Positions 17,938 through 57,137 of a stretch of DNA of 64,000 nt are shown here, piece by piece; the first letter of the stretch is position 1, and every line of letters begins with the position of its first letter. This DNA comes from a virus (taxonomy: Duplodnaviria > Heunggongvirae > Uroviricota > Caudoviricetes), in IMG/VR virus record IMGVR_UViG_2563366947_000002; one strand, given 5' to 3'. The position numbers were made by a program, and so were the translations under genes. The notes under the pieces were generated by a model. That model did no database searches, was not told where the DNA came from, and saw nothing but the letters and a program-made list of their open reading frames with translations.

Positions 17938-18070
17938 GGTTAAGCCCTAAATTCGGGCGCGGCGTGAAGGTTCTTTTGACGGGCTAACAATACCTACTTT
18001 GTGATTTAGTCAATAGATTTAGTAAAATAAAATCTATTAACACTCATGTTGTTATGTGATTTAATTTTGG

Positions 18071-39550: not shown

Positions 39551-39838
39551 TTAGCTCATCACACTATAACGACGGGGAACGGAATTCTCCATCAGGTCAC
39601 GAATTACTCCCGCTTCATGTAGTTCCTCTGTCTCCCAGTATCTGTTTGTCACCAGATCGAGGCTGGCTATGACCTTGTGCCGGTCATTCGGCATAGCCAA
39701 TTTTTCTGCTATAACCATCAGTGAAAACTCTTCATCCAGTAGAATTTGATACCAGACTTTTGACAGTTCCAACTCTCTAATGAGGGTGAAGCGCCGCTCA
39801 AGTGTGGCGGCAGAATAAGTGAAATCTATTTTTTTCAT
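39551..39838 (-). CDS. hypothetical protein
   Basis: 95-aa ORF downstream of the Rha-like gene. Confidence 0.4.
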   Translation of the reverse strand: MKKIDFTYSAATLERRFTLIRELELSKVWYQILLDEEFSLMVIAEKLAMPNDRHKVIASLDLVTNRYWETEELHEAGVIRDLMENSVPRRYSVMS

Positions 39839-39897: not shown

Positions 39898-40839
39898 TTA
39901 ACTAACAATCCAGTCCATAGCAATAACATCCTCTGGAGCTAAATCAATAGCATGGATTTTCCCGTCCCGGATGGTGCGCCAGTGCTTTCGTGATCCACCT
40001 TCGGGCCATACCCATACACCTTCAGGCCAGGAAGAACGACGACACACTGTTGCGTATCCAGTCCTGATCTTCTCTCTGGCGGTATGTAGTGACAGATTAT
40101 CCTTTGGGCTTTCAGGCACAGGATGGTGGATTGCCTGAAACATCCCCATCTTTGGATGATACCAGCGTTTATTGCGTGGTTCTGCCTCCGACATCACCTG
40201 CTTAAAGGCTTTCCGGAAGGGGGCTAGGGCCACAATGGAGCGTCGCGCAAGCAAACCATCTGGAGTTAAAAACTCATGCGTATCGGTGGGAATCCGGTAA
40301 GCGTTGACCAGGTTTCGGCATTTGGCTTCAGTCAGGCCGCATTTCGCCGCCAGCTGGCGGTAGCCAATGTAGCCTTCCGGCATATTGCCTTTCTTTATTT
40401 GCTCGACGGTTTCAGCGACTTTGGACACTTGTGCCGATACTTCGGCTACCTGGGCATTAACAGCGTTGATCCGGCGTTCATGCTCAAGATGCATTTGCGC
40501 CATTTCAGCCAGGATTTCGGCTTTTGATTTTAACGGTCCCCTGGCATTCTCCAGTTCGCGCCAGCGGTCCACCAGCCGGGCGGTGAATTCCGGAGAGAGC
40601 TGTGCGACGACAATGATACTATCGCGCTTGCCTTGTTCGCCTTCGAAGACATAGGCTTTTGTGTATTTATTAGGGCTAAGTGATTGATTATTCTCAACTG
40701 TAGCCAATGGCGTATGTTGGATAACACCTTTAGCAACAAGTCTTTCGATGCTGCGTTTAACATCAGAGTGACGACTTCCCACCAGTTTCGCGATCTCAAT
40801 ACTGGTCATTGTCGCTTTGCGAGAGATGGGCAGATTCAT
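39898..40839 (-). CDS. Rha-family phage regulatory protein / antirepressor-like (positional analog of P1 ant)
   Basis: N-terminal MTSIEIAKLVGSRHSDVKRSIERL resembles Rha/ORF6N domains; start overlaps the upstream small ORF. Confidence 0.5.
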   Translation of the reverse strand: MNLPISRKATMTSIEIAKLVGSRHSDVKRSIERLVAKGVIQHTPLATVENNQSLSPNKYTKAYVFEGEQGKRDSIIVVAQLSPEFTARLVDRWRELENARGPLKSKAEILAEMAQMHLEHERRINAVNAQVAEVSAQVSKVAETVEQIKKGNMPEGYIGYRQLAAKCGLTEAKCRNLVNAYRIPTDTHEFLTPDGLLARRSIVALAPFRKAFKQVMSEAEPRNKRWYHPKMGMFQAIHHPVPESPKDNLSLHTAREKIRTGYATVCRRSSWPEGVWVWPEGGSRKHWRTIRDGKIHAIDLAPEDVIAMDWIVS

Positions 40840-41054
40840 CAGTGCACCTCCACGCAGTTCATCGGCAGATTCCAGTAATTGAGGATCTCCATCGCATCAA
40901 GAGTGAAGCGTGCGGCAAAAATGCAGGGTTCTTCAGGAAGGTATGAACGAGCTTCTGCTTCGGTAGCAGCCATTACGCAGATATACAGGTGTTTTTGGCA
41001 GGAATAGAAACGCCAGATAAATTCAGAATGAGTTGGGGTAGGGATAGTAGCCAT
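40839..41054 (-). CDS. small protein (positional analog of P1 icd)
   Basis: 71 aa, AGGAGG RBS, stop overlaps the Rha-like start. Confidence 0.35.
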   Translation of the reverse strand: MATIPTPTHSEFIWRFYSCQKHLYICVMAATEAEARSYLPEEPCIFAARFTLDAMEILNYWNLPMNCVEVH

Positions 41055-41237
41055 ATTGGCAGCCTCCTTTTGCTAATTTAAGGAGCTACCGCGTGAGGTT
41101 CCAATCTCAATGGCGGTAGCACTGACTGGGTTGGAACTACCGGCGCAAAAGGGAACCGGCCTGCCTTTCGGCAGCCCAGCCAGCACTACCATTGATCTCT
41201 GAGCTAAACGCTACGTATGGCTGTGCGATGGCATGAC

Positions 41238-41261
41238 ACAAAAAAAGACGCTTTCGGCGTC
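41238..41261 (-). terminator. rho-independent terminator (minus strand)
   Basis: AGACGCCGAAAGCGTCT hairpin followed by TTTTTTT on the minus strand. Confidence 0.55.
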
Positions 41262-41366
41262 TGTGTCGCCTTTTGCATTATCCGGGGTTCCAATCCCGGC
41301 ACCCGTTTTTCTAAGGTGCCGTAGAAATATACCCCACGATAATGCCAGGGCGCAACAGTCAGTATT

Positions 41367-41534
41367 TTATGCTTTGGCGGATTTTTTCCGGGCTTGCTTG
41401 CAGGCGTAGGCCATTGCTTTAGCTTTCACTTCATCCAGCTTCCCGGTGATCACTTCTTTTCCGAGAGTGACAAACCAGTCATAGCAACCGCCAGTAATGT
41501 TCTTGATTTGAAAGTTGAGGTAGCGAACAGTCAT
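41367..41534 (-). CDS. small basic protein, 55 aa (not in ORF track)
   Basis: ATG at 41532-41534 with GGGGG RBS; translation MTVRYLNFQIKNITGGCYDWFVTLGKEVITGKLDEVKAKAMAYACKQARKKSAKA. Confidence 0.3.
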   Translation of the reverse strand: MTVRYLNFQIKNITGGCYDWFVTLGKEVITGKLDEVKAKAMAYACKQARKKSAKA

Positions 41535-41854
41535 TTTGACACCCCCAGCGCGAGTAAAGAATGCAGATTATCGCGTGAGTGGTGGACGACGAGTGATGGG
41601 AAAAGACTGTAGTTGTTCATAGTGTAGTGACTCCTTGCTTTCGGAGCCGCCATCGACTGTTCCACGGTCTGGTGGCGGCGCAATAAAGGCTGGAACACCG
41701 TGAGTCAACGGGGGCTTTTCAGCCACCTATATTGCACCGCCATAGGTATGGCGGCGGCAATAATACGAAAAACTAAACAGTTTGTCTCAAAAAGTTGACC
41801 GGTGTGCCAATCGGTAGTGAATGTACATCGGGGAAATTCACAATTCAACTTAAA

Positions 41855-41868
41855 ATGTTAGAAAACTA
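41855..41868. promoter_or_regulatory. C1-type operator-like motif (ATGTTAGAAAACTA)
   Basis: Motif family member at the head of the minus-strand leader toward the icd-like/Rha-like genes. Confidence 0.4.
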
Positions 41869-42444
41869 ATTTATCATTTCAATCTCCATCTGATACAACG
41901 CCATTTCATCGGCATTGTGCCGTATGAAATCTGCTTTTCCGCCTATTTTTCCATCAGCATGAACAGGGACCAGCCAGGGATATTGTTCTCGGACCTCGGC
42001 TGGCGCTGCGTACTGGTGGTGCCATTTACACAAAGGGAGGACATATTTATGCGCGTTCTCTGCCGTTCTCCCGAAGATATGGTGCAGGGATACTACTGGG
42101 CTATGTTGCCCGTGAATATGGCAGGCAATGCAGGGGAGAGTACCGATAGCGGTCTGTATCCGGCGTTCATCGGCTGTGAGTGATCTGCCCTTCAGGCCGC
42201 GTGACGTGCGTGTTTTTTTGGACGGAGCGGATACAGCTTTCTCTTTTCTCCGCTGGTCATATTGCTTTGCTTTTTCAATTTTTTTTTGCCGATATTCAGG
42301 CGATGCGGCTTTTTCTCTCGCTCGCTGCTGCTGGCGTTGAGCTTGTTGAAGGCGCTTTGCCCTTTGTTCCTCTCGCCAGGCTGGGTCAGCCAATTTTTGC
42401 ATGGCTTTTTGTCTCTGTTTCTCCCAATAACTCTGTTTCTGCAT
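41866..42444 (-). CDS. ref: Ref-like HNH-family nuclease
   Basis: 192 aa; Lys/Arg/Gln-rich N-terminus and a Cys/His-rich C-terminal region (CIACH..HH, CKWHH) as in P1 Ref. Confidence 0.55.
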   Translation of the reverse strand: MQKQSYWEKQRQKAMQKLADPAWREEQRAKRLQQAQRQQQRAREKAASPEYRQKKIEKAKQYDQRRKEKAVSAPSKKTRTSRGLKGRSLTADERRIQTAIGTLPCIACHIHGQHSPVVSLHHIFGRTAENAHKYVLPLCKWHHQYAAPAEVREQYPWLVPVHADGKIGGKADFIRHNADEMALYQMEIEMIN

Positions 42445-45610: not shown

Positions 45611-45648
45611 ATATGTTAGAACATTGATTTTAGTTTTCTAACATATTA
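45611..45648. promoter_or_regulatory. pair of C1-type operator-like motifs
   Basis: ATATGTTAGAACATTG and TTTTCTAACATATTA upstream of the 45686 gene. Confidence 0.4.
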
Positions 45649-56099: not shown

Positions 56100-57137
56100 A
56101 TGAGTAAGAAGTCGATCGAGAAAGAGTACAAACGGTTCCTGCAAACCGCTGAACGGTGGAAAGAGCTGGTGGTCGCAAACTCTGTTTTCCATGATACCAG
56201 TTATGCTGGCGAGGAATTCCGCCATGTTGCATTAACGCATGACCAAAACATATTAGAAGAAGCTGAAAAATGTCTTGCTGAATGGAAAGCCTTCGTTGAC
56301 ATGTGCCGCGATGCCGACGGCAAAGCGTCGAACATTGTTGAGTCTGTATATTCTCCGATCCCATTCATCATTGAGGACACCAATCAAAGCACGCATGTCG
56401 TTGTGCAAAGCGCTACAACAACACGTACATTTACACGTGAACAATTGCTAAAAAAATACGACAAAATCATAAAGAAAAGCCTGAAAAATAGGGTTTTTTC
56501 TCAAATCGTAGGTGCTCTTGAAGAAGAACAGCGCTTCTTTGAAGCTGAGCCTGAAGGCGAGATCTACCGGGCGCGTAAAGAGGCATATACAGATGTTGTG
56601 CTGACAACAAACATCGAAGGCAGCAATGCCCTTTCTCGCTTTAGAGTTGGCGCACATGGCGCATTGGTTTTCGCAAGACAACCGAAGACAACGATCCCCG
56701 TTGTCAATAATGTTGGTGAACGCCGGAGCATTACAATTTATTCTGGCGTCGAATCGGTACCTTGCAGCCTTCTCGGCGATTTTAACTTATATCGTGTTCG
56801 TGACCTGGAAAAACACCAGCCAAGCTACGTTGCGAAGTCGTACATCTTAAGGAACATCGATATTCGCAATGAAAGCCTTAAGCAGAAATCCGCTAAGATG
56901 CTGGAGGATGCCGATCCGGCTATTCGCCATATCATTGAGCGTAAGATACGTACATCACGTGAAGCAATGGCAAGGCTGGATAAAATGGATCTGGAATTGT
57001 TAGACGTAATGATGGCCTCTGGAGACGACCTGACCGGCATTAAACTGAATGAAGCTCGTAAAAAATACGGCAAAGCAATCGAAGAACGTTACGGATACAC
57101 ATTCCCCCAAACGCAGTACGCCGCGAAGCTCTGGTAA
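56100..57137 (+). CDS. hypothetical protein; possible immunity repressor by position (P1 c1/coi slot)
   Basis: 345-aa ORF divergent from the recombinase across rox, convergent with pacB, preceded by two operator-like motifs; no HTH recognised. Confidence 0.4.
   Translation: MSKKSIEKEYKRFLQTAERWKELVVANSVFHDTSYAGEEFRHVALTHDQNILEEAEKCLAEWKAFVDMCRDADGKASNIVESVYSPIPFIIEDTNQSTHVVVQSATTTRTFTREQLLKKYDKIIKKSLKNRVFSQIVGALEEEQRFFEAEPEGEIYRARKEAYTDVVLTTNIEGSNALSRFRVGAHGALVFARQPKTTIPVVNNVGERRSITIYSGVESVPCSLLGDFNLYRVRDLEKHQPSYVAKSYILRNIDIRNESLKQKSAKMLEDADPAIRHIIERKIRTSREAMARLDKMDLELLDVMMASGDDLTGIKLNEARKKYGKAIEERYGYTFPQTQYAAKLW

Follow-up and report, generated by a model that had tools for sequence, protein, structure and literature searches.

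In the heteroimmune bacteriophages P1 and P7, the antisense RNA C4 is the trans-acting determinant of immunity, and the immI locus of P1 is annotated in the order Oc4-P2c4-P1c4-a1-b1-c4-a2-b2-icd-ant. In the Gifsy-1 locus of Salmonella, transcriptional read-through gives an mRNA for which experiments support two conformers; the short RNA IsrK activates translation of this mRNA in trans by about 100-fold, and the orf45/STnc1160 segment, conserved in its nucleotides but not in its amino acids, is processed to a species of ~80 nucleotides (nt) (PMC4825925). The authors of that study compared the locus with the CI RNA of P4 and drew no relation to P1 C4 (PMC4825925). For the D6-like element pYU39_89, homologues of c4, icd and the antirepressor, together with a second region of c4 and icd, have already been reported (PMC6799933). 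Here, we analyzed a stretch of 64,000 nt from a virus of the Caudoviricetes (IMG/VR record IMGVR_UViG_2563366947_000002), referred to in its entirety as the window, and compared a minus-strand control region within it with these systems. The region very probably constitutes the P1-type immI locus of a D6-like plasmid prophage, with two C4 antisense-RNA modules in tandem: a downstream module built around a C4 RNA proper and an upstream module built around a divergent, C4-like RNA that we call C4*. The original prediction, made from the letters of the window, had proposed an immI-like region with icd and an antirepressor gene under the control of a C4-type antisense RNA, and the Rfam C4 match, the canonical fold, the a and b target sites, the Icd homologue and the Rha-type antirepressor all bore this out. 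Every feature that it had listed on the minus strand was present within a few bases of its assigned place, and two checks that it had named, an Rfam search for C4 and a comparison with P1 immI, were positive, with the window matching the annotated P1 layout. The window is about 97% identical to the plasmid prophage D6, and over 1.1 kb the control region matches Escherichia phage D6 (NC_050154) at 96.6% identity; D6 is a P1-like plasmid prophage, and the two have in common the gene order of a Ref-like nuclease, small open reading frames (ORFs), an icd-like gene and an antirepressor.

The evidence that carries this reading lies chiefly in the downstream module (Table 1). The C4 match was full-length (model positions 1-87), and the minimum free energy (MFE) structure of the isolated RNA was that of the family, a long closing stem around two hairpins and a single-stranded junction, at -46.4 kcal/mol (z = -5.5). 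The RNA has the NCC 3' tail, and its ends align with those of the annotated P1 c4, from which a mature C4 of 41190-41112 is predicted. The single-stranded junction presents a' (GUUCCAA, 41137-41131) and the loop of hairpin 2 presents b' (CCUUUUGC, 41152-41145), each of which is perfectly complementary, over 7 nt and 8 nt, respectively, to sites on both flanks of C4. A single 7- or 8-mer match alone arose in 1-3% of dinucleotide shuffles of the flanks, and all four matches together in none of 5000, so that the complementarity foreseen in the original prediction does exceed chance. The sequences to which it had assigned this role were different ones. CCGCCAT and ATGGCGG, taken as antisense and target, turned out to be the closing-stem strands of C4 and C4* together with flanking competitor strands, the fourth CCGCCAT being the 3' end (NCC) of the downstream C4; the true specificity elements are GUUCCAA/UUGGAAC and CCUUUUGC/GCAAAAGG. 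The nested inverted repeats described between the terminator and icd were found on the minus strand (GCTACCGC at 41120-41113 and GCGGTAGC at 41092-41085), as were the hairpin with a GAAA loop (41174-41161), the AGGAGG of icd and TTGGAACC at 41293 and 41104; its partner was present as the 7-mer GTTCCAA at 41137, but the 8-mer GGTTCCAA was absent from that strand.

Upstream of C4, the Rfam isrK model matched an RNA composed of hairpin 1, hairpin 2 with a1 in its loop, b1 and an intrinsic terminator. The terminator had been anticipated, and it is there, but instead of merely ending a leader it terminates an isrK-type RNA with a promoter of its own. The putative promoter has the geometry of those in Shiga toxin (Stx) phages, phiP27, P4 and P1 (P1c4/P51b), and a consensus promoter scan missed it, the -35 element matching at only 3/6 positions. 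The c4-a1b1 model (RF03163), which shares one Rfam clan with C4, remained below its gathering score in the window (22.4 bits vs 46.7, at 41279-41332, overlapping isrK). It passed this score in P1, P7, Klebsiella phage 020009, the repL-side locus of D6 and Gifsy-1, and in the last three of these it likewise overlapped isrK. Because both models overlap at the same element, they describe one element, and the layout shared by P1/P7 and the isrK-scoring phages is the same: a σ70 promoter, two hairpins, b1, a terminator-like hairpin with a U-run, a spacer and C4. Placed side by side, the Rfam results for P1, P4, D6 and Gifsy-1 indicate that IsrK is the a1/b1 element.

The Gifsy-1 locus (L056, 34131-34329) showed overlapping isrK and c4-a1b1 matches, then C4 (69 bits), an antirepressor-like gene and isrJ, and its "orf45/STnc1160" is therefore a C4-family RNA. 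In both Gifsy-1 and the window, an isrK that has a promoter and a terminator of its own precedes a C4-family RNA and an antirepressor-like gene. For the part played by the a1/b1 RNA, Gifsy-1 offers the nearest experimental model. It differs in having no icd and a leader ORF, orf45, that is read across the C4 sequence itself, and its output leads to AntQ expression, whereas the window locus lies without an adjacent Q-type antiterminator. The immunity region of P4 also combines an isrK match (the seqA region) with a C4 match (the CI RNA) and has a and b complements on both sides, although there the RNA causes premature transcription termination of the replication operon (PMC4825925) and exerts no icd-ant control. 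In the literature that we examined, a link between P1 C4 immunity and Salmonella IsrK was not found stated, and a 2025 review treats the two separately.

The target of this arrangement is an operon of icd and an antirepressor gene. The window Icd shares 63% identity with P1 Icd (E = 2e-18), and the downstream protein matched phrog_63, "anti-repressor Ant" (E = 2e-61). The start of the antirepressor gene overlaps the icd stop codon (TGATG), indicating translational coupling. Pfam gave no match for icd or for the two small upstream ORFs, orfA and orfB, so that NCBIfam and PHROGs were needed. In the Stx phages GER2 and TL-2011c, an Rfam sRNA-Xcc1 match (RF02221, about 80 bits) lies just 3' of the Rha-type gene (L006, 2223-2306; L008, 2215-2298), so that in lambdoid phages this cassette comes with a further structured RNA. 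Overall, the window shares with P1/P7 immI the order of a putative operator, promoter-like site(s), a1, b1, a terminator-like hairpin, C4, a2, b2 on the icd ribosome-binding site (RBS), icd and the overlapping ant, as well as the C4 fold and the placing of specificity in a and b sequences of 7-8 nt that are ~2 nt apart between immunity types. In contrast, its antirepressor is of the Rha type with no homologue of P1 Ant1/2, its a1/b1 RNA scores as isrK rather than c4-a1b1, its putative operator differs in sequence and stands ~530 nt upstream with the second C4-like module intervening, and the locus lies beside ref, where that of P1 lies beside kilA-repL.

Comparison with relatives revealed that the a and b sites change in concert. 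We compared P1, P7, P4, phiP27, five Stx phages, Klebsiella phage 020009, Ayreon, 673R5 and D6. Each C4 in this set has its own a' and b' with matching a1/b1 and a2/b2 (a2 at +1 to +7 and b2 at +30 to +38), and in 12 phages a1 changes together with a' and a2, and b1 with b' and b2, at offsets that stay constant. In 38 D6-like loci of plasmid or viral-contig origin, four types of downstream module occur, and the three partner sites agree in every parsed case. One type (a GGAAC, b CAAAAGG) is that of the window, another combines a GGAAC with b TCAAAGG, a third (a GAGAC, b CAAAAGG) is that of D6 itself, and the fourth has a GGTCT and b TCAAAGG. The window carries a' GUUCCAA and a1/a2 UUGGAAC where D6 carries a' GUCUCAA and a1/a2 UUGAGAC, a concerted change of 2 nt, from which we predict that the immunity specificity of the window differs from that of D6; P1 and P7 differ by the same sort of a/b change. 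Among the D6-like elements compared (L041, L045, L014, L016 and L043), the block isrK-C4-icd-ant (window 39898-41355) comes and goes as one unit. Its precise absence from some D6-like contigs shows that it behaves as a cassette; in L041, the 55-amino-acid (aa) ORF is followed directly by a homologue of the window gene at 39551-39838. In another contig (L042), the block is present with icd truncated and ant fragmented. D6 additionally holds another complete immI by repL (L018, 19986-21170), syntenic with that of P1 and corresponding to a region outside the window, which consists of c4-a1b1, a C4 with the P1-type a' CUGUCAA, icd and a Roi-like ant. Counting the sub-threshold copy, D6-type elements therefore hold up to three C4-type RNAs.

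Following P1/P7 and Gifsy-1, the downstream module may be pictured to work as follows. A constitutive isrK-type promoter (41355-41326) would give a 79-nt RNA carrying a1 and b1, with most transcription stopping at the terminator, and read-through transcripts would carry C4 (41196-41109), to be excised by RNase P as in P1. Free C4 would pair through its junction a' and its loop b' with a2 and b2 of the mRNA, covering the icd RBS, so that icd and consequently the overlapping Rha-type antirepressor gene would remain untranslated, and premature transcription termination would follow as in P1. Read through the P1 model, the activation by IsrK in Gifsy-1 implies that the short a1/b1 RNA would titrate C4 and turn icd-ant on, as IsrK does in trans, with the exact a and b sequences setting immunity specificity. 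RNase P excision of the window C4 and a trans-acting immunity role are expected by analogy, with indirect support from the NCC tail, from ends that agree with those of P1 c4 and from the concerted a/b type changes among near-identical elements. Likewise, a role of the isrK-type RNA as an Hfq-associated, trans-activating short RNA is transferred from Gifsy-1 as a homologous locus (PMC4825925) and may apply here.

Table 1. Coordinates of the control region features and of the c1 homologue in the window, listed in order of minus-strand transcription
Feature	Position	Strand	Evidence and remarks
C1-type operator motif TTAGTTTTCTAACAT	41855..41869	-	Overlaps the -10 of the distal promoter-like site; C1 binding inferred
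Distal promoter-like site TTGAAA-16-TAACAT	41855..41882	-	Consensus scan; analogue of P1 P51a/P2c4; putative
Candidate a1*/b1* anti-element UUGGCACACCGGUCAAC	41795..41810	-	Complements C4* loop and junction; pairs with C4* in the long-transcript MFE structure
Proximal promoter-like site GAGACA-17-TATTAT	41760..41788	-	Consensus scan; directly before C4*; analogue of P1 P51b/P1c4; putative
CCGCCAT hairpin CCGCCAUA-CC-UAUGGCGG	41737..41754	-	3' arm also serves as 5' strand in the C4* closing stem
C4*, second divergent C4-like RNA	41668..41747	-	Rfam C4 40.2 bits, E = 5e-6 over 1 kb, permissive search
a2* UGGAACA	41658..41664	-	Complements C4* junction UGUUCCA (exact 7-mer); offset +4 after C4*; invariant in alignment
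b2* GAGUCA	41633-41628	-	Complements C4* loop UGACUC (exact 6-mer); offset +35; within orfA Shine-Dalgarno AAGGAGUCA (41628..41636)
orfA, 29-aa leader ORF	41531..41620	-	Occupies the icd position; ATGA overlap with orfB
orfB, 55-aa protein	41367..41534	-	phrog_7786 (unknown function)
isrK-type promoter TTGCGC-18-TATATT	41326..41355	-	6 nt upstream of the isrK 5' end; putative
isrK-type a1/b1 RNA	41241..41319	-	Rfam isrK (RF01394) 62.5 bits vs gathering score 50
a1 UUGGAAC	41293-41287	-	Loop of isrK hairpin 2; perfect complement of a'
b1 GCAAAAGG	41276-41269	-	Inside the isrK match; perfect complement of b'
Intrinsic terminator	Stem 41262-41246 and U-run	-	Belongs to the isrK-type RNA
C4 antisense RNA	41109..41196	-	Rfam C4 (RF01695) 76.7 bits vs gathering score 45
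Alternative hairpin GCUACCGC...GCGGUAGC	41085..41120	-	Loop presents a2; 5' arm also serves as 3' strand in the C4 stem
a2 UUGGAAC	41104-41098	-	Perfect complement of a', downstream of C4
b2 GCAAAAGG	41073-41066 (element 41063..41073)	-	Perfect complement of b'; overlaps icd Shine-Dalgarno AGGAGG (41068-41063)
icd homologue, 71 aa	40839..41054	-	NF033153 49.4 bits vs cut-off 25
Rha-type antirepressor, 313 aa	39898..40839	-	PF09669 32.6 bits vs cut-off 29.9
c1 repressor homologue	56100..57137	+	99.7% identical to D6 C1; weak similarity to P1 C1 NF041318

The upstream "leader" is a second module rather than a passive leader, and the evidence that it holds a second C4 copy is good but incomplete. 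The C4* match spans the full length of the C4 model, scores 36-42 bits in all D6-like elements examined, and adopts the family fold (z = -4.6), with a closing stem (41744-41726/41689-41673), a GAAA hairpin, the loop UUGACUCA (41708-41701) and the junction UGUUCCA (41697-41691); its mature form is predicted at ~41741-41671. The candidate targets a2* and b2* lie at the same offsets as a2 and b2 in the family, and the pair in the right order arose in 20 of 20000 shuffles. Relative to the Escherichia fergusonii and Shigella dysenteriae types, C4* is 90-94% identical, while the flanking leader is 54-59% and the 55-aa gene 88% identical. The plasmids of these two species carry the upstream module alone, followed by an intact 61-aa Icd-like gene in the position of orfA and then by the 55-aa ORF. 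The prediction had attached a strong RBS to this ORF; the ORF is present, but the strong AAGGAG site (41636-41631) serves orfA, which starts at the ATG at 41620. Two other starts for the 55-aa ORF, at GTG 41698 and at ATG 41653 (the start of D6 orf86), were rejected, as both overlap C4* or its flank and the ATG at 41620 behind AAGGAG is conserved.

The CCGCCAT sequences are part of the architecture of this module. CCGCCAT/ATGGCGG occurs 4 times in 650 nt, a density equalled in 0 of 200 shuffles of the whole window. The predicted CCGCCAT hairpin does exist, as the palindrome CCGCCATACCTATGGCGG at 41754-41737 on the minus strand, although the string given for it had been plus-strand text placed 2 nt off. 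It arises when an upstream strand (41758-41747) pairs with the 5' strand of the C4* stem, of which ATGGCGG...CCGCC are the two strands, and UGGCGGC (41652-41646) can pair with the 3' strand. After C4*, GCCGCCA ... UGGCGGC (41652-41646) is the counterpart of the GCUACCGC/GCGGUAGC arrangement after C4. In the MFE structure of a long transcript (start ~41848), the CCGCCAT hairpin forms; from a start at ~41753, it does not and the C4* fold forms. The duplex of the candidate anti-element UUGGCACACCGGUCAAC with C4* reached -21 kcal/mol (z = -2.75, 28 of 2000 shuffles; L014, z = -2.24), and the element is only partly conserved, so that the modelled pairing of 41810-41795 with C4* is suggestive only. 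The C4 and C4* junctions share GUUCCA in the window (41131-41137 and 41691-41697), not in D6, which makes their a sites 6/7 cross-compatible; duplex tests for cross-pairing between the upstream and downstream modules were not significant.

At the head of the region, the predicted operator at ~41855 proved to be a recurring C1-type motif: ATTAGTTTTCTAACATTT at 41870-41853 is matched again at 45629 and 56069 (3 matches vs 0.07 expected), and the 13-nt core of the motif is found 10 times in the window where 1.9 occurrences are expected. Further copies of TTAGTTTTCTAACAT with 0-3 mismatches were seen at 18067, 27995, 36073, 42509, 45613, 45630, 54661, 55985, 56071 and 60504. All copies are intergenic and stand just before gene starts (c1, a cre-like gene, a mat-like gene, a divergent DUF4406 operon and others), one of them 15 nt upstream of the c1 homologue, a distribution that resembles the dispersed C1 operators of P1. 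The c1 homologue is presumably the trans-acting partner of the operator, and by analogy with P1 we infer that C1 controls the locus. The position of the distal promoter-like site is conserved in E. fergusonii-type elements, and GAGACAAA and the -10 of the proximal site are invariant or conserved in 6/6 aligned elements while their flanks diverge. In such an arrangement, a C1-operator-controlled promoter and a proximal promoter would stand ahead of C4* (41747-41668), whose junction and loop would act on a2*/b2* at the orfA RBS, keeping orfA and the coupled 55-aa protein off in the lysogen.

Several observations weigh against a full two-module reading. The score of C4* is below the Rfam gathering score (40.2 vs 45 bits), which makes it C4-like and not a certified family member, and its pairing with b2* covers only 6 nt. 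The energy of a single duplex between C4* and its downstream target was no better than that of shuffles (z = -0.46), in a test that allows one duplex with limited interior loops and cannot hold both sites at once. Pairing was kept in 96.7% of the cells of the C4* alignment, a value that is statistically uninformative since 217 of 500 shuffles do equally well. No specificity variants of C4* were found. A large protein search found orfB homologues only in D6-like elements of about 90 kb and thus yielded no distant relatives for a covariation comparison of C4*. A scan of genome contigs with the 55-aa protein confirmed nothing. In L053, the most distant relative, three operator copies stand immediately before the 55-aa gene, without C4* and orfA. 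The 55-aa protein was modelled by AlphaFold2 with a predicted local distance difference test score of 84.5 as four strands and a long helix, and a fold search with this model found no decisive structural relative. The P1 C1 operator consensus ATTGCTCTAATAAATTT, tried as a candidate for the operator, gave 0 matches at up to 3 mismatches, an operator difference in keeping with a C1 whose similarity to P1 C1 is only distant. The two upstream promoters and the assignment of the C1 operator were drawn from consensus and recurrence and stay putative, and RNA processing, action in trans, Rho-dependent polarity and the role of a1/b1 as a decoy are carried over from P1/P7 and Gifsy-1, so that each may hold here by analogy.

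How the two modules cooperate, if they do, may be read in more than one way. We tentatively consider a two-tier antisense switch, which is possible but falls well short of an even chance, in which C4* silences a D6-specific 55-aa effector while distal transcripts repressed by C1 relieve this silencing and feed the isrK/C4/icd/ant cassette. C4* made from the proximal, constitutive promoter would silence the effector through its coupled leader ORF, and the anti-C4* element (41810-41795) and competing hairpin (41754-41737) of the distal transcripts would prevent the formation or action of C4*. Once C1 was lost, the 55-aa protein would then be turned on, and distal transcripts entering the cassette would add a1/b1 decoy, resulting in a feed-forward commitment to the lytic cycle.

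Somewhat less probable still, in our estimate, is that only the downstream module works, with C4* as a decaying relic of an older immI unit of the order C4 - icd - 55-aa gene, its icd cut to 29 codons and its CCGCCAT hairpins left over. The sub-threshold score, the shortening of the icd-like ORF from 61 to 29 aa relative to the E. fergusonii type, the 6-nt b2* with its non-significant duplex energy, the non-significant covariation and the lack of C4* in L053 would all be expected of a relic. Decay, however, fits poorly with an RNA that is better conserved than the neighboring coding sequence and far better than the flanking leader. All substitutions in the C4* stem keep pairing (U-G to C-G, A-U to G-U, U-G to U-A, and, at one position, U.U to U-G to C-G). 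Elements that look functional carry a2* and the b2*/RBS site without change, the only disruption being in a visibly degraded copy in Salmonella pSa1423. The short ORF in the position of icd and its ATGA coupling also persist in a diverged variant of 31 aa.

A cis mechanism, as modelled for Gifsy-1 IsrK, appears unlikely, though less so than an absence of any antisense function. According to this explanation, a1/b1 would pair with the C4 segment of the same mRNA, the RBS would be sequestered, and the short RNA would displace a strand, so that C4 acting in trans would not be the key repressor. The two conformers and the trans activation by IsrK at the homologous Gifsy-1 locus (PMC4825925) speak for it, as do the competing hairpins GCUACCGC/GCGGUAGC after C4 and CCGCCAUA/UAUGGCGG with the UGGCGGC strands around C4*, and predicted folds of the upstream transcript that vary with the start point. 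In predicted folds of the 291-nt and 201-nt downstream transcripts, by contrast, C4 kept its own fold and was unpaired with a1/b1. The established role of C4 in P1 and P7 is exerted in trans, and the strict three-way co-variation of a1/a'/a2 in near-identical elements fits a specificity determinant that acts on incoming genomes. The cis view and the trans C4 view are not exclusive. Finally, that the complementary sequences are chance matches or generic hairpins of a GC-rich leader without antisense function draws on the frequency at which a single match arises in shuffles, and is refuted by the joint shuffle result, by two Rfam families above their gathering thresholds and by sites that change together across many phages.

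Preferring the reading of a P1-type immI locus with two C4 modules, we note further features of its surroundings. The D6 record leaves C4, isrK and C4* unannotated and places a coding sequence (CDS), probably spurious, over them. A 39-aa ORF lies fully within C4 (window 41073-41192, minus strand) and is probably a spurious CDS; its equivalent on an Escherichia marmotae plasmid (L017, 2180-2299) is annotated as "ash family protein." On the opposite strand, D6 orf84 (L001, 4492-4791) spans isrK and C4 and is probably spurious as well. In two E. coli D6-like contigs (L054 and L055, 2172-3861), an IS200/IS605-type element with TnpB and a Y1 transposase has inserted into the 3' end of the 55-aa gene and replaces the C-terminus of its protein. 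Three tRNA genes of the window (61960-62032, 63573-63645 and 63651-63723, minus strand) correspond to the tRNA cluster of D6.

The kind of system described here is already known; what is new is the exact anatomy, a specificity type unlike that of D6, and a C4-like module, conserved although it scores below threshold, that would control a pair of small ORFs. The finding leaves the known mechanism unchanged. The Rfam results join two literatures, that of P1 C4 immunity and that of Salmonella IsrK, and they bear on annotation, in that public records, including that of D6, are without these RNA genes and sometimes have CDSs called over them. E. coli, Salmonella and Shigella commonly carry D6-like phage-plasmids, and 119 plasmid records match the leader alone. 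If the two-tier switch were true, such elements would hold up to three C4 systems of different specificity, and swaps of a and b would define immunity groups among near-identical phage-plasmids. The four a/b types predict which D6-like elements can superinfect or coexist with one another, in the manner of the heteroimmune pair P1 and P7.

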